DNA from: an archaeon GW2011_AR10
GTDB lineage: Archaea; Iainarchaeota; Iainarchaeia; Iainarchaeales; GW2011-AR10
NCBI GenBank assembly: GCA_000830275.1
Contig: CP010424.1
Coordinates: 60,001-92,000, forward strand
Direction: 5' to 3'
DNA length: 32,000 nucleotides
The notes beneath the pieces were generated by a model, which ran no database searches, was not told where the DNA came from, and saw nothing but the letters and a program-made list of their open reading frames with translations. Both the position numbers and the translations under genes were made by a program. Shown here in pieces: positions 6,963 to 32,000 of the stretch. Every line of letters begins with the position of its first letter. Within the stretch, counting starts at the first letter, position 1.

Positions 6963-6989
6963 TGATTTCAAAGCAGTTTTTTACTGCAA

Positions 6990-7234
6990 GGGGTCGTAGT
7001 CTAGTCTGGTCTAGGATGCGAGCTTTGGGACAGCTGAAAGGTCAGCTGGCAACCTATATGTCAAGAGATTTCGCTGCGCTCAATCCCTTATTAATTTGGA
7101 CTGCATTATGGGCTCAAATTGTAAGGGTTTTCAGCGTTCGAACCTTGATTAATTTGTAGGCAATAGCTGGGTTACTTTATGGCTATTCAGTTGCGAAATA
7201 GCTTGTGACGGGGGTTCAAATCCTCCCGGCCCCA
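6990..7234 (+). tRNA. tRNA-Pro(UGG) with a 170-nt intron at the canonical 37/38 position (exons 6990-7029 and 7200-7234)
   Basis: Hand fold. Acceptor GGGGTCG/CGGCCCC with discriminator A. D arm GTCT-AGTCTGGTCTA-GGAT. Anticodon stem CGAGC/GCTTG. Loop TT-TGG-GA. Variable TGAC. T arm GGGGG-TTCAAAT-CCTCC. BHB: TTTG(32-35) pairs with CGAA(7194-7197), the 3-nt bulges are GG|A and AT|A, and the outer helix is CAGCTG(7031-7036)/CAGTTG(7188-7193). Confidence 0.8.
7030..7199 (+). other. tRNA-Pro(UGG) intron, 170 nt
   Basis: It is delimited by the BHB described for the tRNA. It contains hairpins CAGCTG-AAAGGT-CAGCTG (7031-7048) and AATAGC...GCTATT (about 7162-7187), plus an internal repeat of about 32 nt. 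Confidence 0.75.
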
Positions 7235-7309
7235 TTAGCCGGTTGCGTCCGGCTGTGACGCGGAGTGGAGGGTTTTCGCTTCGCTCAAACCATGGGTATG
7301 CCTTCAAAA
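7215..7309 (+). repeat. 95-nt direct repeat, copy 1 (last 20 nt of tRNA-Pro(UGG) plus 75 nt of trailer)
   Basis: By hand alignment, 90 of 95 positions are identical to 7973-8067. It contains hairpin GCCGG-TTGCGT-CCGGC and the motif TTTCGCTTCGCTCAAACC. Confidence 0.9.
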
Positions 7310-7871: not shown

Positions 7872-7970
7872 GGGGACGTAGTATAGTTTGGTCTAGTACC
7901 CAAGCTCGGGGGCTGTAAGACCTTTACAGCCGATTAGCTTGTAACCCCAGTTCAAATCTGGGCGTTCCCA
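7872..7970 (+). tRNA. tRNA-Pro(GGG) with a 24-nt canonical intron (7912-7935)
   Basis: Hand fold. Acceptor GGGGACG/CGTTCCC (one G.U) with discriminator A. D arm GTAT-AGTTTGGTCTA-GTAC. Anticodon stem CAAGC/GCTTG. Loop TC-GGG-GA. T arm CCCAG-TTCAAAT-CTGGG. BHB: TCGG(32-35) pairs with CCGA(7930-7933), bulges are GG|G and TT|A, and the intron hairpin is CTGTAA/TTACAG. Position 33 reads C rather than U. Confidence 0.72.
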
Positions 7971-7972
7971 CT

Positions 7973-8067
7973 TTCAAATCGTCGCGGCCCCATTAGCCGG
8001 TTGCGTCCGGTTGTGACGCGTAGTGGATGGTTTTCGCTTCGCTCAAACCATGGGTATGCCTTCAAAA
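7973..8067 (+). repeat. 95-nt direct repeat, copy 2 (orphan T-loop and acceptor remnant TTCAAATCGTCGCGGCCCCA plus trailer)
   Basis: It starts 3 nt after the tRNA-Pro(GGG) discriminator base and has 5 mismatches to copy 1. Confidence 0.9.
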
Positions 8068-8229
8068 ACGGAGAGCTCCGTTTACGAGCTGTAAGTGTCC
8101 CTTCTTCGAAGGGACAGTAATACTCCTCCGTTTACACTGTGTGGCATGTGAAGTGAAATGGAGCATGGCACTTGCTAGCTTCTTCCGCAAAATTGGAAGC
8201 TTTAAATATTTCAAAGTTGTTTCTTTTGT

Positions 8230-11024: not shown

Positions 11025-11489
11025 TTATGAAAGATCCCTGGGCCTTGAAAAAATGCTTTTAAGTGGCAAAGACATTTCCTCAACTGTTGAGTTCTCGATT
11101 TTTTGGGATAGAATCCCTGTTGAATGGAAACCAAATTTGCCGTAAAGGCTTTTTGCAACACGATTTTCGGCTTTAACGATGAGCTTTATTTCTGAAACGT
11201 TTTTCTCTTTCAGGAAGTTTATGCCGAAATCAAGCAGGTGCTCACCTAAACGTTTGCCTCTCCTGTGTTTTACAACGCTTATTGCATTTACTCTCCCAAT
11301 GCTGTCAAGGAGCTCCAAGTCAACGAAACCAATAATACCGTTTCGTTCAACAAGCTTGAACAAAAAAATGTTAGGGTTTTCAAGCCTCTCCCTTAAATTT
11401 TCTACCGAGGAATTAAAATAGGAGAACTCCAATTCAATAAGCCTTTTTACTATTTCGAGGTCTTCTTTCTCTACTTCCGTTATGTTCAT
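11025..11489 (-). CDS. GNAT-family N-acetyltransferase (RimI/Ard1-like)
   Basis: Acetyl-CoA motif A VVKHRRGKRLGEHLL (R-x-x-G-x-G/A type) and YGKFGF near the C-terminus, in 154 aa. Confidence 0.8.
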   Translation of the reverse strand: MNITEVEKEDLEIVKRLIELEFSYFNSSVENLRERLENPNIFLFKLVERNGIIGFVDLELLDSIGRVNAISVVKHRRGKRLGEHLLDFGINFLKEKNVSEIKLIVKAENRVAKSLYGKFGFHSTGILSQKIENSTVEEMSLPLKSIFSRPRDLS

Positions 11490-15359: not shown

Positions 15360-15905
15360 TTATTCGCGCCATGCCTTGAAAACAAGCAGTTCCTCAAAGA
15401 AAAGCTTTTTTCTTCCCACAATTCTGAAGCGCATTTTTTGCTTCTCAAGCTTTGCTTCGGTTTCCTTGACTCCATTCAAAGAGCTCTGCAGAAAAAAACA
15501 CTTTCCTTTGCCCTGCAAATGTTTTTTGAATTCCGCAAGAAACCTGTCAAGGACTTCTCTCCCGTTTTTTCCTCCATCAATGTCAGTAAGCTTAATGCCC
15601 TCGGATGGAACATAAGGCGGGTTAAATATTATTGCATCAAATTTTTCCTTCACTTTCTTGAACAAGTCGCTTTCCCTGAACTCAATTTTTTCCAGCACCC
15701 CTGCTCTGGCAGCGTTTTCCGCTGCTTTTTCAAGTGCCTTGCTGCTAATGTCAACAGCTATTACTTTTGCACCCATTGAAGCAGCTTTAATTGCCTGAAT
15801 GCCTGAGCCGGTGCCAATGTCCAGGACAAGTTGCTTCGGTTTTACTTCAACGCATTCAAGAAGCAGGAAAGAGTCTTCTCTGGGAGAATAAACGGTTTCT
15901 TGCAT
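15360..15905 (-). CDS. HemK/PrmC-family N5-glutamine methyltransferase (archaeal Mtq2-like)
   Basis: SAM motif I VLDIGTGSGI and catalytic IFNPPYVP, in 181 aa. Confidence 0.85.
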   Translation of the reverse strand: MQETVYSPREDSFLLLECVEVKPKQLVLDIGTGSGIQAIKAASMGAKVIAVDISSKALEKAAENAARAGVLEKIEFRESDLFKKVKEKFDAIIFNPPYVPSEGIKLTDIDGGKNGREVLDRFLAEFKKHLQGKGKCFFLQSSLNGVKETEAKLEKQKMRFRIVGRKKLFFEELLVFKAWRE

Positions 15906-17213: not shown

Positions 17214-17735
17214 ATGGCATTGGAAACTGTTTTTTTGCTTGTTCTAGTGGTTGCATTAGCCCTTGGAAATGCCCTGCTTTCATTTGTGGGGAGGAACGAG
17301 AACAAGGGGGTTTCCACTCAACAGGGGTTTATCACGGCTGCAATTCCTTTGGAGGCAGTGAGGCTTCAGCAGCTCGACACAGCAGTAAAGGTTTTATCCA
17401 ACAAGGTTGACATGGCGCATTCAAGAATTTCGTCCCTTGAAGGCGCGGTTAAAAAAAGCAGGCCAGTCGACTTCCATAAAAGCGTTGCGGAAAAACTCCA
17501 CAGGTTTGACAATTTCAGGGCAAACACCGAGGTTGAACTGAAGGGTTTAAGGGAAGCCCTGGTTGGGCTCAAGGAAAAACATTTAACCTTTAAATCCAAA
17601 AAGTTGCGGCGCGAATCCAAAGCGCTTTCATCAGAGCAGATGCACAAAATCATTTACCGCTCCTCCAAGAAAACCAAAGGCAAGCAATTAAGCAGCGCCA
17701 GGATTTCAAAGAAAAAAACCAAATATAGCAAATGA
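17214..17735 (+). CDS. Membrane-anchored coiled-coil protein (hypothetical)
   Basis: It has an N-terminal TM and a heptad-like central region with a Lys-rich tail. Its stop codon (17733-17735) lies inside the first arm of the twin-hairpin element. Confidence 0.5.
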   Translation: MALETVFLLVLVVALALGNALLSFVGRNENKGVSTQQGFITAAIPLEAVRLQQLDTAVKVLSNKVDMAHSRISSLEGAVKKSRPVDFHKSVAEKLHRFDNFRANTEVELKGLREALVGLKEKHLTFKSKKLRRESKALSSEQMHKIIYRSSKKTKGKQLSSARISKKKTKYSK

Positions 17736-17814
17736 CAAAATATTTGAACAAATAATGTCATTTGCTATCTATCAGGCGACAATAAATGTTCAAAAATTAA
17801 TGTCGCCTGCTATA
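17724..17814 (+). repeat. Twin-hairpin element, copy A
   Basis: Hairpin 1 is TAGCAAATGACA (17726-17737) / TGTCATTTGCTA (17756-17767) with an 18-nt loop. Hairpin 2 is CAGGCGACA (17773-17781) / TGTCGCCTG (17801-17809) with a 19-nt loop. The termini are TATAGCA...TGCTATA. Confidence 0.9.
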
Positions 17815-17849
17815 GTAAAAGAAGAAATGATTGTTTTTTCAGTGATCTA

Positions 17850-18401
17850 ATGCGTTCAGAAATGAAAATTGAGTGCCCTGTTTGCAGGGAAAACTCCGGG
17901 CTGTTCCAAGTTACTGAAAACATTCCGCACTTCGGGCAAACGCTTCTTTCAAGCTTTTACTGCAAGCACTGCGGTTACCGCTTCTCTGATGTCATCACCA
18001 CTGAAATCAAGCAGGGAGCAGAGTTCAAGGCAGAGGTTAGAAGCGCAGCCGACCTTAACACCCGCGTTGTAAAGAGCTCCACCGCGTTTGTGGAAATTTC
18101 CAGGCCAGAAATAAGCGTTCAGCCTGGCCCTGCTTCAATTGGGGTAATAACAAACATTGAAGGCTTGCTTGAAGCCATGATCGGGCCAACAAAAAGCGTT
18201 GCGTTTGAAGGTGGAGAAAAAATAAAAAAACTCGCTGAAATAAAACTCAAGCAGTTAATGGAAGCCAAAGAGGGAAAAATTCCTTTCAGGGTTAAATTGT
18301 CTGACCCATTTGGCAACAGTGCACTGATTGGAAAAAACGTCAAGAAAAGGTTTCTCAGCAAAAAAGAGATAAGGAAACTTGAAGAAAAGCTCGGCTTCTA
18401 G
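17850..18401 (+). CDS. ZPR1-type zinc-finger protein (archaeal ZPR1 homologue)
   Basis: CPVC...(24 aa)...CKHCGYRF zinc ribbon followed by the ZPR1 A-domain-like region, in 183 aa. The start is ATG 17850 or 17862. Confidence 0.8.
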   Translation: MRSEMKIECPVCRENSGLFQVTENIPHFGQTLLSSFYCKHCGYRFSDVITTEIKQGAEFKAEVRSAADLNTRVVKSSTAFVEISRPEISVQPGPASIGVITNIEGLLEAMIGPTKSVAFEGGEKIKKLAEIKLKQLMEAKEGKIPFRVKLSDPFGNSALIGKNVKKRFLSKKEIRKLEEKLGF

Positions 18402-23107: not shown

Positions 23108-23296
23108 CTAAGAAAATAATATGTTCTCATTTTTTATTTTTTTTGTTAAGGCCTAGCAGGGATGTTTTGCTGGGCTGTCACCGAAAAAAGCATGAAAAGC
23201 TATTGGTTAACTCCTGATTATAACTTTTTCCTTGCATATCCTAAAACTTATAATACTATATCCATCACAATAATCTTGGTGTTGGTTGTGCACAAG

Positions 23297-23485
23297 ATGT
23301 GTCCAAGGTGCGGAGTAGTTTTTGAGGTTAAATCTGACCCTGTTTTCTGCTCTGAAAAATGCAAGAGGCTGTTCAGCGAATCAAGCCTGGGTTATCTTAA
23401 GGGCAGGCCTTCCAGCGGCTTCTCTGGCTCAAGGCCAGCAAGAGATGGTAATACAGAAGTAACTAGGCCAAAGAGAACTAATTAA
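23297..23485 (+). CDS. Small zinc-ribbon protein (62 aa; the maximal ORF starts at 23162)
   Basis: MCPRCGVVFEVKSDPVFCSEKCKRLF has a CxxC...CxxxC pattern. The TATA-like AAAACTTATAATAC lies about 45 nt upstream. The longer N-terminal extension looks non-coding. Confidence 0.4.
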   Translation: MCPRCGVVFEVKSDPVFCSEKCKRLFSESSLGYLKGRPSSGFSGSRPARDGNTEVTRPKRTN

Positions 23486-23494
23486 TGTACTGGC

Positions 23495-23673
23495 CCGATT
23501 GCGTACTGGCACTCCGCAACACATCAAGCCATTTTATTTTACTCAATGGCTTATAAACATTAATTGGCTCAGAGTTGAGTTGACCCGATTGCGTACGGGT
23601 ACTCCGCATACCTCGAGGTATTTCACTTCGTTCAACACCTCATAAATATATTCTGGCTCAGAGTTGAGTTGAC
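23495..23673 (+). repeat. Two tandem ~90-nt units (23495-23584, 23585-23673), plus a degenerate third start up to about 23697
   Basis: Each unit has a conserved 5' module CCGATTGCGTAC(T/G)GG(C/T)ACTCCGCA and a conserved 3' module TGGCTCAGAGTTGAGTTGAC. The core is a variable hairpin: AAGCCATT/AATGGCTT in unit 1, GAGGT/ACCTC in unit 2. Confidence 0.9.
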
Positions 23674-24639: not shown

Positions 24640-24733
24640 TATAGCAAGGGACATAAATAATTAAACAAATAACTGTCCCTTGCTAGTCGCAAAAGACAAA
24701 AATAAAGTTCAAAAATTAATGTCTTTTGCTATA
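24640..24733 (+). repeat. Twin-hairpin element, copy B
   Basis: Hairpin 1 is TAGCAAGGGACA (24642-24653) / TGTCCCTTGCTA (24674-24685) with a 20-nt loop. Hairpin 2 is GCAAAAGACA (24689-24698) / TGTCTTTTGC (24720-24729) with a 21-nt loop. The termini are TATAGCA...TGCTATA. Confidence 0.9.
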
Positions 24734-24786
24734 AAAGCCGAATCGGATTTTTAAGCCTTTTCCATAATGGTTTTTGGAGTGGTTGC

Positions 24787-25392
24787 TTGATAACAGAATT
24801 CCTGATTGGATTTGTTTTGCAGGCAATTTCAATGCTAGGCTATGCCGGCGTATTCCTGCTCATGCTGATGGAAAGCACAGTGCTGCCTGTTCCTTCAGAG
24901 CTGGTCATGCCTTTTGCAGGCTACCTTGTTTCAAATGGCACTTTTGGTCTTATGGAAGTGATAATTGCGTCGCTTGCAGGCAGCATTGTTGGCTCTCTAA
25001 TTTCATATTATGTTGGCAAAAGTTTCGGCAGGGCAACAATAGTGAAATTTGGCAGATTTTTTTTCCTTAACGAGCATCACCTGGGCATTGCGCACAAGTG
25101 GTTTGAAAAATATGGGGACAAAACAATCCTTGCTTGCAGGTTTGTGCCAGCGGTAAGGCACGTTATTTCACTGGTTGCCGGCACCGCTGAAATGAACCTC
25201 AAAAAATTTGTATTATACACTGCAATAGGTGCGTTCTTCTGGAATTCTGTCCTTCTTGTGGCTGGAATAATGCTGCAAAAGAACTGGGTCGAAATAACGA
25301 AGTATGCTGAATGGCTTGACATTGCAATAATTATTGGCGCAGTGGTCTTCACTGCATTCCTGGTTATAAGGCACTTGAAAAGCAGAAGATAG
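24787..25392 (+). CDS. DedA-family (SNARE-associated / VTT domain) membrane protein
   Basis: GYAGVFLLMLMESTVLPVPSELVMPFAGYL and later FVPAVRHVISLVAGTAEM are typical DedA signatures. The TTG start is preceded by the SD-like GGAGTGG. Confidence 0.85.
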   Translation: MITEFLIGFVLQAISMLGYAGVFLLMLMESTVLPVPSELVMPFAGYLVSNGTFGLMEVIIASLAGSIVGSLISYYVGKSFGRATIVKFGRFFFLNEHHLGIAHKWFEKYGDKTILACRFVPAVRHVISLVAGTAEMNLKKFVLYTAIGAFFWNSVLLVAGIMLQKNWVEITKYAEWLDIAIIIGAVVFTAFLVIRHLKSRR

Positions 25393-25404: not shown

Positions 25405-25516
25405 AGCCTTTTAAGAAAATGCTGGCGAAAATGTGGCTGCGCCGAAGCCTTTTAAGAAAATGCTGGCGAAAAACTGCCTTCGGCAACAGTCTTTTAAGAA
25501 ATGCTAGGCTTTTAAA
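25405..25516 (+). repeat. Three phased repeats of AGCCTTTTAAGAAAATGCTGGCGAAAA (25405-25431, 25446-25472, degenerate 25488-25509) plus a partial GCTTTTAAA
   Basis: Copies 1 and 2 are 27/27 identical and the period is 41-42 nt. Each contains a TATA-like CTTTTAAG. Confidence 0.9.
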
Positions 25517-25551
25517 CCATAACATTTTTTTGGCACAGTTAATGATTAAAA

Positions 25552-27861: not shown

Positions 27862-30800
27862 TTAACTGCAACCGGAAGTGGTGCCGCAGTCCTCGCATAC
27901 AGTGCAGGAACCATTTCTTTTAACCCTCATTGAACCGCATTCAGTGCACTGTTCGCCGGTATAGCCCTGGCTTTTAGCTCCTTTAAGCAGGCTTTCCTTT
28001 TCACTGCCCACAGTTTCAGTTTTGTCAAAAGAAACGCCTGCATCTAGGAGGGGATTCTTCTGAACAGTTTTAGGTTCAGCTCCATGGTCCATTGTTTTAA
28101 CGTGCACAAAATCTTCCCTGCCCAAATACTCGTGCCCTAATGCCCTAAAAATGTAGTCAAGGATTGAGGTGGAGTTCTTTATTTTTTCGTGGCCTGTAAC
28201 CATTCCAGCTGGCTCAAACCTTGTGAAAGTGAATGAATCCACAAACTCCTCCAAAGGAACACCGTACTGCAGTGACTTCGAAATTGCTACGGCAAAGCAG
28301 TTCAGCAGCGCGCGGTAAGCTGCTCCCTCCTTGTACATGTCAATAAAGATTTCTCCAAGGCTGCCGTCCTCGTATTCGCCTGTTTTAAGGAAAACCTTGT
28401 GGCCGCCAACTGTTGCCTCCTGCACGAAGCCGTGCCTCTTGAATGGCAGCTTTCTCCGCTGCACTCTCTGCACTATTTTCTGCTGTATTTCCTTCGGCCC
28501 AATAAGCTCGTTAATGTCATCGCCTTCTCCAAGTGCAAGCAATTCATCATTTGCTTCATCAGAAATACTGTTAAGAGGCTGGCTCAGCTTGCTTCCATCG
28601 CGGTAAAGCGAAATGCATTTCAGCATCAGCTCCCAGCTCTTAACATAAGCCTCTTTTATTTCCTCAATCGAGGAAGTGGCTGGCATATTAATTGTTTTGC
28701 TGATTGAGCCTGAAATGAACGGCTGCACTGAAGCAATCATTTTGATGTGGCCCATGTGGTGAATGAACCTTTTGCCTTTCTTTCCGCACTTGTTGGCGCA
28801 GTCAAATAATGGGTAATGCTCTTCCTTCAGGTGAGGTGCTCCCTCAATCGTCATTGTGCCGCATACATACTCATTTGCTTTCTCGATCTCCTGCCTTGAA
28901 AAGCCGAGGGCCTTAAGCATGTCAAAGGCCGGAGAGTTAAGCTGTTCCTCCGTGAAGCCCAGTTGTTTGCAGAAATCTTCTCCCAGGTTCCACTTGTTTA
29001 ATGCAAACTTCAATTCGAACGCATTTTCTAGCTGCATTTCCACCATGTCAACCCTTTCATCAGTGAAACCTTTCCTTTTCAGTGCCTCGCGGTTAATTGC
29101 AGGGCACCCTTTGAGCGTGCCGTGGCCTTTAACGTATTTTTCAATCTCCTTTATTTGCTGTTCAGTGTAGCCAAGCCTCTTCAGTGCTTTCTGCAGTGAC
29201 TGGTTTACTATCTTAAAGTAGCCCCCGCCTGCAAGCTTCTTGAACTTCACCAAAGCAAAGTCTGGTTCGATGCCTGTTGTGTCGCAATCCATTACTAGGC
29301 CAATTGTTCCTGTTGGAGCAATAACCGTTACCTGAGCGTTCCTTAAACCAAACCGCTCTCCTTCATTCAATGCCCTATCCCATGATTCCTGTGCTGCTTC
29401 AAGCAAGTAGTTTGGGCACTCCTCTTGATTAATCGTGTAAGGCTTAACTGTCAAGCCCTCGTACTCGTTTTTTGGAGCATCGTAGGCTGCTCTGCGATGG
29501 TTTCTGATGACTCGAAGCATGTGCTCTCGGTTTGCATCAAATCGCTGGAAAGGGCCAAGGCAGCGCGACATCTCCGCAGAAGTAGCGTAACTCTCTCCGC
29601 AGAGAATTGAGGTAATGGCTCCAGCAATTGCCCTTGCTCTCTCTGAATCGTATGGAATGCCTAAAACCATCAGCACTGTTCCGAGGTTTGCATAACCTAA
29701 GCCAAGAGTCCTGAAGTCATGGCTTTTCTGCGCCATTTCTTTGCCCGGAAACTGCGCCATTAGAACGCTTATTTCAAGCACTACTGTCCAGAGCTTCACC
29801 GCGTGCTTGAATCCTTCAACATTGAAAATTCCGGCTTTTTCGTCCAAAAACTTTCCGAGGTTAATGCTTGCCAAGTTGCAAGCTGTTTCATCCAGAAAAA
29901 TGTACTCGGCGCAGTTGTGAACTGAAATACCGTTTGCAATAAAAGAGTTTGTCAGGGGCTCGTTTAAGTCAAAGACTCTTTGCACGCCAACATATTCCAA
30001 TAATTTTATCGTGTCATACGGCATGTCCTCATATGTTGTTACTTGTTCATTCAGTTCCTTGAGCTGTTGGAATTTTTTTGATTCAGGCATAAAGCCTATT
30101 AGCGTCTCAAACTTAATTCTGCTCGAGCGGGAAATTCTTAGGCTATGTAGTTCCCTTACTTGGTATTCTTTCAGCCCGCCTTTTCCATCAGGTAGCAGTG
30201 AAATGCTTTTTCCTGCCCTTCTGTTCTTGTACAGCTTGCTTTTTATTCCAAAGCCAATCAAAAGAACCTGGGTTCCTTTAAGCAATTCAAGGCTTGTGGA
30301 ATCAAGGGCAACATACTGTGATTTTTCGCCGTAGTTTGCCACTGTTCCGTCGCATGTAAACAGCCCCTGCAAAACATATTTTTGTTCACCGAGACTTAAT
30401 CCAAAAATGCTTTCAGAAATTGTTTTTTCATGTGATTTTTGTGACAGGTCAATAAACTTTGAAATTTTTTCAACAGCATCTTTTGCCATTATATGGAGTT
30501 TTGCACTCGTTTTTGTTTTCTGCATTGTTGCAGGATAATTTTGATTGGTTTTCCTTTCAAAATTTTTTGCATAATAATCAGAAAACTTTTTGACAATGTT
30601 TTCTTCCAAGTCTTTGTCCATCGTCAGCTGAATTTGCCCGCGTGAACCACATCCATCCCCCAAATATGCTCCAACAAGCTGGAAAAAGATTTTGTCAAGT
30701 GGCTCTTTTATTTCTGAAACATTATGTGAAGGAAGACAGACAAAATCATCTTTTGTTAATTCTGCAGCCTGCACAAAGCCCCTGTTTGCGGTAAATACTT

Positions 30801-32000
30801 TGTGGTCTGCAGTCAGATTTACTTCATAGCCTGCCTGTGTTTCAAGCCTGTAAACAGGTTTTTCTCCTGTTTCAAATGAACCCTTGGTTATTCCAATTGA
30901 AAGACCGTCAAGGTTTGTTACAAGCTCTGTTTCTTTGTTTACCAAGCTGTCAATTCTTTTCCAGCCGGATGAAGTTAAAACAAGTGTATCGCCTGTAACG
31001 CATGGATTTGTTGCATTGATTTTTCCGTCTGCAGGGCAGGTGTGCCATTCATTAATTGTTGTATCATATTGGATGCCGGGGTCAGCAGAGCTCCATGCAG
31101 CGAAAGCAATCTGTTCCCATAGGGCTTGTGCCTTAAGAGTTTTCACTGCCTTTTTGTCTGTCCTGTTGGTTAGTTTCCATTCCCCCCCATTGAAAACTGC
31201 TTCCATGAAACTGTTAGGGATTCTCACCGAATTGTTTGAGTTCTGTCCTGAAACAGTCAAGTAAGCATCTGATTCATAATGGGTGTCAAATTCCTTGAAG
31301 TAAAGTTTGGCGTGGCCCTGTTCCGCCAACTGCAGTGCGCGGAAAATGTAGTTCTGCGGCACGCCAAAAGAGAGCGCCTGCTTTACCGTTTCACTTAGTT
31401 CCTTGTTTTCGCTGAGGTTGGTTCCGCCATTGTTAGCGAGCCCAATGATTCTGTTAAGGAAAGCGCTTGCAATCCTGCTTCCAGCCACAAGCGCCACAAC
31501 CTTTTTTTCTTCTTCAACTTTCCAGTTAACGAAATCCTCGATGTCCGGGTGGTCAATGTCCAGTATGACCATTTTTGCGGCTCTCCTTGTTGTTCCGCCG
31601 GACTTTACGGAGCCGGCTGCGCGGTCATAAATTTTCAGGAAAGACATTAGTCCGGAGCTTATACCGCCGCCTGAAAGAAGTTCCCCTTTTCCCCGCAAAC
31701 TTGAAAAGTTTGTGCCTGTGCCTGAACCGTACTTGAATATGCGCGCCTCTTTTGTCACTAAATCAAAAATTCCGCCTTCATTAACCAAGTCATCATTTAC
31801 TGACTGGATGAAGCACGCGTGGGGTGCTGGGTGCGTGTAAGCATCAGCTGATCTTGTTAGTTCTTTCGTGTCAGGGTCAACGTAGTAGTGGCCTTGGGGG
31901 TTTCCGGTTATGTTGTACTTTAATGCAAGCCCAGTGTTGAACCACTGAGGAGAATTTGGCGCAGCTATTTGGTGCAGAAGCATGTAAGCTATTTCGTCCT
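27862..32000 (-). CDS. nrdJ: Class II (adenosylcobalamin-dependent) ribonucleotide reductase, intein-containing; N-terminus lies off the window
   Basis: The frame stays open upstream of the listed Met to base 32000 (...[23 protein letters not shown]). Motifs are [14 protein letters not shown], active site TNP-C(intein)...[19 protein letters not shown], and a C-terminal Cys cluster CTECG...CTVCEDCG. Confidence 0.95.
29914..31002 (-). mobile_element. Intein (363 aa) with LAGLIDADG homing-endonuclease domain, inserted at the NrdJ active-site Cys
   Basis: Block A is CVTGDTLV (Cys codon 31000-31002) and block B is LTADHKV. The LAGLIDADG motifs are LVGAYLGDG and LQGLFTCDG. Blocks F/G are [21 protein letters not shown] (Asn codon 29914-29916), followed by the +1 Cys of CAEY. 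Confidence 0.9.

Follow-up and report, generated by a model that had tools for sequence, protein, structure and literature searches.

Paired palindromic hairpins in the archaeon AR10 belong to a family, probably of mobile DNA, that occurs in groundwater DPANN archaea

Miniature and palindromic elements resembling the twin hairpins

The Correia elements of Neisseria are TA-targeting bacterial MITEs: non-coding sequences of about 100–150 bp, mainly intergenic and located just upstream of genes. Their target is TA, their ends read TATAG, and each forms one long hairpin from its 26-bp terminal inverted repeats. Correia elements and other MITEs are reported to carry outward sigma-70-like promoters, and Correia elements to undergo inversion (PMC10969869).

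REP, BIME and REPIN sequences are short extragenic palindromes, often arranged as inverted pairs, in which the complementarity of the stems is kept and whose abundance is patchy and lineage-specific (PMC2817692, PMC3116915, PMC3733652). The REP superfamilies bear GTAG or CGTC tags (PMC3733652). The REP/RAYT literature that we found deals with bacterial systems, and no archaeal REP/RAYT system is described there.

The PATEs derived from IS200/IS605 (e.g., those of Haloquadratum) are miniature archaeal elements with hairpin ends, which are recognized as folded DNA. Their hairpins are subterminal, have the same orientation and small loops, and they insert on the 3' side of a specific target of four or five nucleotides, which is not duplicated. 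The catalogued archaeal MITEs (SM1-4 in Sulfolobus, and those of Halobacterium) are small, non-autonomous and intergenic. Archaeal MITEs are included in a review list (PMC10969869). A bulk MITE census shows that DPANN genomes can be MITE-rich (105 MITEs per Mb in one from Woesearchaea), but it is an automated list of TIR-flanked sequences, which may or may not include the family described below (PMC11602168).

The genomes of DPANN archaea are tiny, and descriptions of their mobile DNA are scarce. The window analyzed here, a stretch of 32,000 nt of Iainarchaeum AR10 (archaeon GW2011_AR10, Diapherotrites), contains two copies of an element made of two hairpins. Both loci are probably fixed insertions of a non-autonomous, MITE- or REP/BIME-like mobile DNA, whose family is dispersed in groundwater DPANN. 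No description of this double-palindrome family was found in the literature on these motifs and on DPANN MITEs; the twin hairpins are a new family of an already known kind of element.

Structure and conservation of the two AR10 copies

The features of the two loci are as follows.

17214–17735, plus strand: open reading frame upstream of copy A; its TGA stop (17733–17735) lies inside the 5' arm of unit A1.
17724–17814, no strand assigned: copy A, twin-hairpin element, TA-TAGCAAATG...GCCTGCTA-TA, flanking TA dinucleotides included.
17725–17768, minus strand: unit A1 (hairpin 1), arms 17725–17737 and 17756–17768 (13 bp), loop 17738–17755 (18 nt), directional motif GTTCAAATATTT on the minus strand; model R1, 55 bits on the minus strand.
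17773–17809, plus strand: unit A2 (hairpin 2), arms 17773–17781 and 17801–17809 (9 bp, CAGGCGACA/TGTCGCCTG), loop 17782–17800 (19 nt) with the TATA-box-like GTTCAAAAATT at 17788–17798; model R1, 56.6 bits on the plus strand.
17810–17816, plus strand: terminal CTATAGT of copy A, 39 nt upstream of the ZPR1 ATG; its TATA follows GTTCAA at exactly 17 nt.
17850–18401, plus strand: ZPR1 zinc-finger gene (PF03367, PF22794), downstream neighbour of copy A, outside the element.
24640–24733, no strand assigned: copy B, twin-hairpin element, TA-TAGCAAGGG...CTTTTGCTA-TA.
24642–24685, minus strand: unit B1 (hairpin 1), arms 24642–24653 and 24674–24685 (12 bp), loop 24654–24673 (20 nt), directional motif GTTTAATTATTTA on the minus strand; model R1, 58.7 bits on the minus strand.
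24689–24729, plus strand: unit B2 (hairpin 2), arms 24689–24698 and 24720–24729 (10 bp, GCAAAAGACA/TGTCTTTTGC, perfect stem), loop 24699–24719 (21 nt), followed by TATAAAAG at 24730–24737; model R1, 54.1 bits.
24787–25392, plus strand: DedA/VTT-domain gene (PF09335), downstream neighbour of copy B, outside the element.

A preliminary description of this DNA had reported these two copies and their common architecture, and direct reading and alignment recover both. As it stated, wherever the stems of A and B differ, both arms have changed and complementarity is complete, while GTTCAAAAATTAATGTC shows no difference between the copies. No perfect stem in the window is longer than those of 12 and 13 bp (all others have at most 10 bp), and stems of at least 8 bp give 60 entries in the real window, nested stems being counted separately, compared to 10–27 in shuffled sequence. 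The fold z-scores of the two copies are −7.9 and −7.5, and none of 200 shuffles is equally stable. The bare pattern GACA-N16-24-TGTC is not rare (five occurrences vs 2.0 expected); the signal is carried by the stems and the loops, not by this pattern alone.

The preliminary description was silent on the fact that TTTGAAC in loop 1 is the reverse complement of GTTCAAA in loop 2. Hence the same directional unit is present twice, back to back. Model R1 indeed detects the paired units of each twin on opposite strands, so that the palindromic units form inverted pairs, as in a REP/BIME.

Copy A is 77% identical to copy B, and copy B is 78% identical to the element of another DPANN contig (L038): the copies within the AR10 genome are not closer to each other than to the copy of another genome. 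Copy A is invariant in 14 strain-level sequences, except for one SNP common to two of them (L001/L011), a T>A change at the stop codon 17733–17735 which breaks a base pair and lengthens the reading frame by four codons. Copy B is unchanged across 15 strain-level sequences. There is no sign of recent movement within AR10, every strain-level contig that covers either locus having its copy. The two copies were found in about 55 kb of AR10 sequence (the genome is 1.24 Mb), and the 9.4 kb or so of sequence added at the left end contains no additional copy. The closest ZPR1 homologue in the collection is only 39% identical, which indicates that AR10 has no close relative there.

Genes around the elements

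According to the preliminary description, copy A begins on the stop codon of the upstream gene. This is incorrect: with the TGA inside the 5' arm of A1, 12 nt of the element are coding. When copy A and one TA are removed, the junction gives an in-frame TAG and a product of 170 amino acids. The plus-strand reading frame left of copy A (173 amino acids) resembles a real membrane/coiled-coil protein. A minus-strand reading frame of 95 amino acids on the same side was considered as a gene with a Shine-Dalgarno sequence of its own and rejected, as its translation resembles antisense noise. A 31-amino-acid reading frame is called within copy A; direct reading finds no counterpart in copy B. The genes around the elements are syntenic housekeeping genes.

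The family in other DPANN genomes

Related elements exist outside the window, in other groundwater DPANN contigs which are mostly Woesearchaeota-like. The hosts of the family are thus Iainarchaeum AR10 and Woesearchaeota-like genomes, so that the family could serve to trace gene flow between archaea that live together in groundwater. The relatives contain single hairpin units, twins of about 90 nt, and twins of 140–165 nt with small linker hairpins. The mobile entity is the pair of units, usually back to back, of about 90 nt or, with linker hairpins, 140–165 nt.

Each unit is a DNA palindrome of 35–50 nt, with variable outer arms and an almost invariant stem top, (G)GACA/TGTC(C). The loop (18–23 nt, AT-rich) carries a TATA-box-like TTYAAAWA, a terminal TATA lies exactly 6 nt after TGTC, and the spacing between the loop motif and this TATA is 17 nt in 19 of 22 units. 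The arms of unit B2 are the commonest arm type among the relatives, and are also found in L026, L027, L028, L036, L038, L039 and L044. The units thus differ from REPs, which are GC-rich with small loops: the loops are long, AT-rich and conserved, the invariant GACA/TGTC is at the loop-proximal end of the stem, and the unit alignments show no GTAG/CGTC tag.

Six twins (A, B and four from other DPANN contigs) align end to end, from TATAG to GCTATA, while their flanks are unrelated; in the alignment of copy A, homology ends at TATA on either side. Similarly, L027 and L043 contain the same element of about 165 nt, 89% identical, in different flanks. Three to five units are present within 2.6–3.5 kb in each of the multi-unit loci L036, L039 and L043. 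On the contrary, about 113 kb of related Woesearchaeota loci contain no unit, except a decayed one in L047. The intergenic contexts are varied: one element lies in a 5' UTR, and others between convergent genes (L038) or over stop codons (copy A, L039, L038). Short (90–165 nt), non-coding, dispersed and sharply bounded, they have the features of MITEs. The double-hairpin family provides a practical annotation rule: such sequences should not be annotated as small RNAs, operators or 31-amino-acid genes.

A scan of the collection contigs with a twin-level pattern (AACAAATAA..TGTC..GTTYAAWWATT) gave only three chance matches in unrelated bacteria, and is uninformative because the pattern is too tied to the AR10 loops. 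Pattern scans of viral contigs gave nothing convincing, the top match (24.5 bits) having no stem.

Filled and empty orthologous sites

The comparison of orthologous sites provides the deciding evidence for a mobile element. Upstream of rpS6e in L028, a 93-nt twin separates the conserved native promoter from the Shine-Dalgarno sequence. The same site is empty in L050, whose S6e is 96% identical and where TTCTAAATACATTCGGAGG is unbroken, and also in L045, L051 and L052; the duplicated bases are ATA/TA. L047 has its decayed unit at this same S6e site, in reversed orientation. Upstream of rpL3, L036 has a 148-nt twin, in the context GGTGATTAAAGC-TA-[...]-TA-AAAAC, whereas L053, L054 and L055, whose L3 proteins are 90–94% identical, have the empty site GGTGATTAAAGCTAAAAAC.

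Insertion occurs at a TA dinucleotide and involves the whole pair of units at once; TA is then found on both sides. The preliminary description had proposed to tabulate flanking duplications: two independent insertions have TA (ATA at one site) on either side, although an insertion between T and A without duplication would look alike, and the third junction (insertion 1 of L036) is not clean. TA occurs at both junctions in both insertion orientations, and the left flanks of the twins have nothing in common beyond it. Such insertions account for new stop codons or long structured leaders in some genes.

The four readings listed in the preliminary description fare differently in the light of these results. 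The closest is that of a miniature mobile element with hairpin ends, which is favored by the insertion polymorphism at two orthologous sites, the TA duplication, the sharp boundaries and the patchy distribution; the IS200/IS605-PATE features which were part of that reading were not found. Like Correia elements, the family has TATAG ends and TA flanks, but each of its ends is a perfect stem-loop of its own, with a conserved loop of 20 nt, and the end-to-end inverted repeats are weak. The AR10 ends, TAGCA.../...TGCTA, match perfectly over 5–6 nt and at 9–10 of 12 positions, and the Woesearchaeota-type 12-nt ends match at only 7 of 12.

Covariation of the stems

Changes of both partners are seen at seven of the 14 stem pairs (37 cells), a level that none of 500 shuffles reaches. 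Among 323 stem cells, 276 are Watson–Crick pairs and only three are G-U pairs. Even GACA/TGTC has a compensated variant (GCAA/TTGC), and one loop is flipped between two copies. The near-exclusive Watson–Crick pairing and the flipped loop point to a DNA palindrome rather than to an RNA fold. The preliminary description saw in the compensatory stems the signature of a selected fold. The covariation is real, but the deduction of selection is only partly safe, since template-switch correction of DNA palindromes yields the same features without an RNA fold. Perfect compensatory changes in stems are thus not sufficient proof of an RNA fold, as DNA palindromes can remain perfect via their own mutational mechanisms.

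The proposal that the element acts as an RNA (small ncRNA, signal in a 5' UTR or for processing, terminator or stabilizer hairpin) whose fold would be selected at the RNA level draws on this covariation and on the very stable predicted folds (z of about −7.5 to −7.9); moreover, copy A and the L028 element lie between co-directional genes, where read-through would transcribe them. We nevertheless regard it as very improbable. G-U pairs are almost absent, the elements occur in both orientations relative to the flanking genes and even between convergent genes, the mutually inverted units of a twin have non-equivalent loops on one strand, and one loop has opposite directions in two copies. Rfam gave no match, either in the window (gathering score) or in eight related loci (E ≤ 0.1), and no tRNA match was found. 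A terminator scan found nothing, and no T-run follows the stems.

Another of the four readings, an attC-like site at which an integron-type system would recombine, is also based on structure: like attC, the element is a folded site (55–140 nt) of conserved structure and variable sequence, and the GTTCAAA/TTTGAAC pair bears a superficial resemblance to the R'/R'' core sites of attC. It can be given almost no credence. The element consists of two perfect hairpins that fold independently, whereas attC is a single long stem, imperfect and with extrahelical bases; GTTCAAA deviates from GTTRRRY, and no cassette array or integrase is found nearby, the neighbours being the syntenic housekeeping genes mentioned above.

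In a mobile DNA palindrome, the arms could be kept complementary because only hairpin-competent copies propagate, and/or because intrastrand template switching corrects the palindrome. Template switching would also account for the flipped loop.

Which enzyme could move the element

The movement of the pair would be catalyzed in trans. Our best guess would be a DDE transposase that targets TA, of the IS630/Tc1-mariner type, and the main alternative an enzyme that recognizes hairpins. The sequence examined (about 55 kb for AR10) yielded neither a parent IS nor any transposase or autonomous element sharing the ends of the twins. The preliminary description had suggested a search for Y1 transposases and integrases: the window has no transposase or integrase gene, and one Y1_Tnp gene (PF01797) is present in L055, from a close relative of the L036 organism.

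This gene is one of the arguments for the alternative, in which the element moved as a REP/BIME (REPIN) or as an IS200/IS605 derivative and a single-strand-specific HUH/Y1 transposase cuts beside the folded hairpins; the flanking TA would then be a cleavage-site preference and not a true target duplication. Free variation of the arms with maintained pairing suits an enzyme that reads the shape, GACA/TGTC and the loop, and the units form inverted pairs as in BIMEs and REPINs. IS200/IS605 is reported to be more widespread in archaea than any other IS family (PMC13343696), which also counts in its favor. However, the Y1 gene of L055 is flanked by small-loop hairpins of its own (ACGGACT-AA-AGTCCG and ACAGGCT-AA-AGCCTGT), and the L055 locus contains no unit at all. 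To our knowledge, the loops of known Y1 substrates are far smaller than 18–23 nt. Neither a GTAG/CGTC tag in the unit alignments nor a conserved 4–5-nt target 5' of the element is found, and TA is present at both junctions whatever the orientation of the insertion. The hairpins also differ from those of PATEs, being mutually inverted, with no target in the left flank beyond TA and TA on both sides, and from REPs in that no RAYT was found beside the units. A HUH/Y1 enzyme therefore seems rather unlikely.

In a related and somewhat more doubtful proposal, the family would be an archaeal counterpart of REPINs/BIMEs: a structure-specific enzyme of single-strand DNA would read the hairpin shape together with its GACA/TGTC top and loop, and each hairpin would be a portable promoter, with the BRE/TATA in the loop, whose direction could be flipped by loop inversion. 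If so, these elements would spread ready-made, invertible promoters among co-occurring DPANN phyla.

Promoter-like features of the units

Whichever enzyme moves them, the inserted elements probably affect neighbouring genes, perhaps through outward BRE/TATA-like promoters or through hairpins in read-through transcripts; this would be a side effect of the insertion and not the cause of the element's presence. Judging from their sequence, the loop motif and the terminal TATA may act as an outward-facing promoter. Promoter-like boxes at the ends recall the outward promoters of Correia elements and other MITEs, but since the host is an archaeon any promoter in this family would need to be of the BRE/TATA type, unlike in Correia. 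If the TATA-like loop motif is active, the family would consist of portable archaeal promoters, analogous to the Correia-borne promoters in Neisseria, a role which is compatible with mobility.

The units could also be host cis-regulatory modules, i.e., promoters with the BRE/TATA in the loop. The inverted repeat on either side would be the binding site of a dimeric regulator or would extrude as a cruciform, a twin would be a pair of divergent promoters, and the dispersion of the family would reflect a regulon and not transposition. TTYAAAWA does resemble the usual TTTAAATA box of the AR10 genome, the internal geometry is very constant (the 17-nt spacing between motif and TATA is fixed), several units aim at start codons 14–58 nt away (L3, S6e, ZPR1, DedA and others), and the predicted transcription start, about 8–10 nt past the terminal TATA, is never inside a gene. 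But the orthologous S6e and L3 promoters of close relatives have no unit and have retained their own conserved TATTTAAATA promoter upstream, the distribution among related genomes is patchy, and A1, L028R, L039L and both L038 units face the 3' ends of convergent genes. We thus consider a host regulatory module improbable. The differing arm sequences and the variable arm spacing (18–23 nt) leave no single regulator site evident. For the GACA...TGTC operator proposed in the preliminary description, the outcome is the same: only GACA/TGTC is conserved, its two halves are 18 to 23 nt apart, and close relatives lack the units at the orthologous promoters.

Two more specific assignments were rejected. 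The twin is not an obligate divergent promoter, since several units face gene 3' ends. The terminal TATA is not generally a −26 TATA box: the TATA-like end that the preliminary description saw ahead of the downstream genes is real, but in relatives the same TATA is only 14 nt (L3) or 19 nt (S6e) from the start codon, a spacing at which it cannot be a −26 box.

As to the end of copy A itself, CTATAGT (17810–17816) can be read as the element end plus the putative duplicated TA, or as a −10/proximal-promoter-like box; the region was flagged as TTCAAA-16-TATAGT with an upstream TG.

Structure of the two copies

The window contains two twin-hairpin elements of about 90 nt, and a reading of the sequence together with a stem search bears out that each carries two stem-loops:

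17724-17814, copy A: 13-bp stem with an 18-nt loop, then 9-bp stem with a 19-nt loop
24640-24733, copy B: 12-bp stem with a 20-nt loop, then 10-bp stem with a 21-nt loop

All four stems are perfect, and those of 12 and 13 bp are the longest perfect stems of the 32-kb window (all others have 10 bp or less). The fold energies of the copies lie 7.5–7.9 SD under those of shuffled controls. Column by column, the copies share 82% identity; in a comparison that includes the element of metagenome contig L038, copy B is equidistant from that element (78%) and from copy A (77%). GTTCAAAAATTAATGTC is exactly common to both copies, and their alignment confirms that the stem differences are fully complementary. 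TTTGAAC in loop 1 is the reverse complement of GTTCAAA in loop 2: the twin thus consists of one directional unit (a single hairpin) used twice, back to back.

The preliminary description also called GACA/TGTC invariant and had copy A start on the upstream stop codon. The bare GACA-N-TGTC pattern is not in itself unusual; it is invariant in copies A and B, but a compensated GCAA/TTGC variant occurs among the wider units. The stop codon (TGA, 17733-17735) in fact sits further in, within the first arm.

Gene callers report a 31-aa ORF (17755-17850) nearly all within copy A, whose TAA overlaps the ATG of ZPR1 (TAATG); it is probably spurious, and copy B has no equivalent. A small perfect hairpin at 8096-8116, TGTCCCTTC-TTC-GAAGGGACA, has arms like those of unit B1 of copy B (AAGGGACA/TGTCCCTT) in reversed order, a likeness which may be a coincidence.

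A family with a common plan

A scan of a genome collection with an over-specific pattern gave chance matches only. A metagenome scan using one hairpin type as the pattern yielded clear family members in eight contigs (L026, L027, L028, L036, L038, L039, L043 and L044), and the contigs that could be assigned are archaeal, of a Woesearchaeota-like type, and bear rpS6e and archaeal rpL3/L4. The alignment of 22 units gives a common plan: a 5' arm ending in (G)GACA, 4–10 AT-rich nt, GTTYAA, exactly 7 nt, then TGTC(C) and the 3' arm. In 19 of the 22, TATA comes at a fixed distance, exactly 6 nt past TGTC and 17 nt past GTTYAA. Certain arm types recur (AGCAAAAGACA, (C)ACGGACA, TAATAGCGGACA and others), and units occur singly, as twins of ~90 nt or as twins of 140–165 nt whose linker holds additional small hairpins. 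Six twins can be aligned over their full length, TATAG to GCTATA; their flanks are unrelated.

Scanning with R1, a covariance model of the single unit, reveals 3–5 units per 2.6–3.5 kb in each of L036, L039 and L043, no further copy in ~55 kb of sequence from archaeon GW2011_AR10 (AR10), the source of the window, and no unit in ~113 kb of related Woesearchaeota loci save a decayed one in L047. Pattern scans and R1 found nothing convincing in viral contigs. The settings of the elements vary: L028 has its element in a 5' UTR, L036, L039 and L027 immediately ahead of start codons, and L038 between convergent genes; in copy A, L039 and L038 a stop codon is overlapped.

Woesearchaeota-like intergenic regions (L036 590-645 and 760-815; the L027/L043 spacers; L047 9640-10000; L048 5180-5260) also contain several short perfect hairpins of other kinds, which have no relation to the GACA/TGTC units. 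Examples are GAAAATCC-N4-6-GGATTTTC, CGAAAATGC-ATA-GCATTTTCG and GTCAAAAACC-AAA-GGTTTTTGAC, and the 5' region of the ribosomal protein gene S6e is a hot spot for them.

Insertion at orthologous sites

The decisive evidence comes from orthologous sites. Homologues of S6e led to a set of syntenic Woesearchaeota loci, and in all of them the same native promoter, TATTTAAATAAACC...TTAATTCTAA, precedes this gene. In L050, whose S6e is 96% identical to that of L028, the empty site reads TTCTAAATACATTCGGAGGTCAATATG; in L028 a 93-nt twin lies within this same sequence, with ATA/TA on both sides. The site is also empty in L045, L051 and L052, and the decayed unit of L047 occupies the same point in the opposite orientation, along with other hairpins. 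At the L3 gene, the empty site of L053, L054 and L055 (L3 90–94% identical) reads GGTGATTAAAGCTAAAAAC, and in L036 a long twin of 148 nt interrupts this site at its TA, with TA on both sides. A second insertion in L036 (140 nt), 14 nt upstream of the first, has a less clean junction. Both comparisons are classic filled-site/empty-site pairs and show that the twin inserts as a whole, at a TA and in either orientation.

In AR10, the closest ZPR1 homologue found among 5.8 billion proteins is only 39% identical, so this archaeon has no close relative available for such a comparison. When copy A is taken out together with one TA, the upstream ORF regains an in-frame TAG, which fits an insertion into the TA of its original stop codon. 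The neighbouring genes of the window (ZPR1, ATP-dependent DNA ligase, diphthamide synthase, geranylgeranyl reductase) are archaeal, and exact protein matches assign the window to AR10 (Diapherotrites / Candidatus Iainarchaeum). In about 20 AR10 strain-level contigs retrieved from groundwater metagenomes, both copies are essentially unaltered wherever the respective locus is covered. The sole population variant within the element, T>A at 17733 in L001 and L011, breaks a stem pair and removes the TGA stop, extending the upstream ORF to 177 aa, with no compensating change.

Mobilisation would occur in trans. The TA junctions best match a DDE transposase of the TA-duplicating IS630/Tc1-mariner type, which may be the moving enzyme. 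The freely varying outer arms are instead best matched by an HUH/Y1 enzyme that would recognise the hairpins, and a relative does carry a Y1 gene:

L055 9002-9430, minus strand: 142-aa Y1 transposase gene (PF01797), directly after rpL3, in the place of rpL4 in relatives

Its flanking small-loop hairpins (ACGGACT-AA-AGTCCG and ACAGGCT-AA-AGCCTGT) differ from those of the family, however, and no units lie nearby; this is an IS200-type element that breaks up the ribosomal protein operon.

Covariation and its meaning

In the unit alignment, 7 of the 14 stem pairs are altered on both sides, in 37 cells. None of 500 shuffles reaches the covariation score, and slid registers collapse. The 25 forward-oriented units comprise 276 Watson-Crick, 3 G-U and 44 other cells, the latter chiefly outermost. 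Pairing is thus conserved, but in the strictly Watson-Crick manner to be expected of DNA, not RNA.

The compensatory stems had been taken as a sign of selection on a fold. The covariation is real, but intrastrand template switching in palindromes (quasipalindrome mutation) can yield perfect arms, and both the perfect arms and a flipped loop could have this origin here. Compensatory change is therefore no proof of selection on a fold. A flipped loop is seen in L027 and L043, which share one ~165-nt element set in different flanks: between L027 1956-2000 and L043 420-464, the spacer is identical and the left hairpin's 23-nt loop lies inverted with respect to it, and the arms differ by a compensated A-T/G-C change. 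The loop change is a small inversion inside a DNA hairpin.

Internal motifs and a putative promoter role

The TATA-like end noted upstream of genes is present, but it cannot in general be a -26 TATA box, since its distance to the start codon varies (14, 19, 27, 32, 39 and 58 nt in six cases). TTYAAAWA (the GTTYAA motif and the next two bases) resembles the usual TTTAAATA box of AR10 promoters. If this loop motif were the TATA box, initiation would fall ~8–10 nt past the terminal TATA, and no case contradicts this. Bacterial MITEs, Correia elements among them, are well known to carry outward promoters (PMC10969869). A portable-promoter role is plausible here; it would be secondary, since many units point towards gene 3' ends. 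The unit geometry also scores as a bacterial-type promoter (TTCAAA-16-TATAGT with an upstream TG), which is a curiosity, the host being archaeal.

Classification

The family behaves as a MITE or REP/BIME element, and it displays the generic MITE features that could be tested. Among the readings first proposed, the miniature mobile element comes closest to the evidence; the features specific to REP/RAYT tags, IS200/IS605 PATE, attC sites, Rfam RNAs and operators are absent. The retrieved literature contains no description of the family, and an automated census reports MITE-rich DPANN genomes (PMC11602168). We class the element as a new family within an already known type. Its interest would rise with a mobilising enzyme, with the copy number in AR10, or if the loops proved to be functional, invertible archaeal promoters.

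Other repeats and genes of the window

6981-7237: apparent tRNA gene whose anticodon loop is followed by an insertion of ~170 nt, GGGGTCGTAGTCTAG...//...GGGGGTTCAAATCCTCCCGGCCCCA
7872-7970: second apparent tRNA gene
7215-7309 and 7973-8067: 95-nt direct repeat, 95% identical, beginning with the tRNA 3' end TTCAAATCCTCCCGGCCCCA
23491-23673: two tandem ~90-nt repeats, intergenic, after ORF 23162-23485
25405-25486: 41-nt tandem repeat in two copies (85% identical), 3' of the DedA gene
11361-11387 and 25506-25532: 27-nt inverted repeat
27862-31983: ribonucleotide reductase gene with inteins (Intein_splicing, LAGLIDADG)

Both apparent tRNA genes were read by eye and are not reported by ARAGORN; Rfam gives only a weak tmRNA-like match at 6990-7237. 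The 95-nt repeat encloses a 758-nt segment (a DUF1761 gene and the second tRNA) and looks like an att-type duplication after integration into a tRNA gene.

The strain-level contigs L002 and L006 diverge from the window between ORF 23162-23485 and the methyltransferase gene (beyond locus position 15636), which makes the tandem-repeat region at 23491-23673 a strain-level rearrangement breakpoint. The length of ribonucleotide reductase also differs between strains (1373, 1461, 1516, 1346 and 1498 aa in the window, L011, L012, L015 and L018), which suggests that its intein content is variable; the window's own product has no exact match on record.
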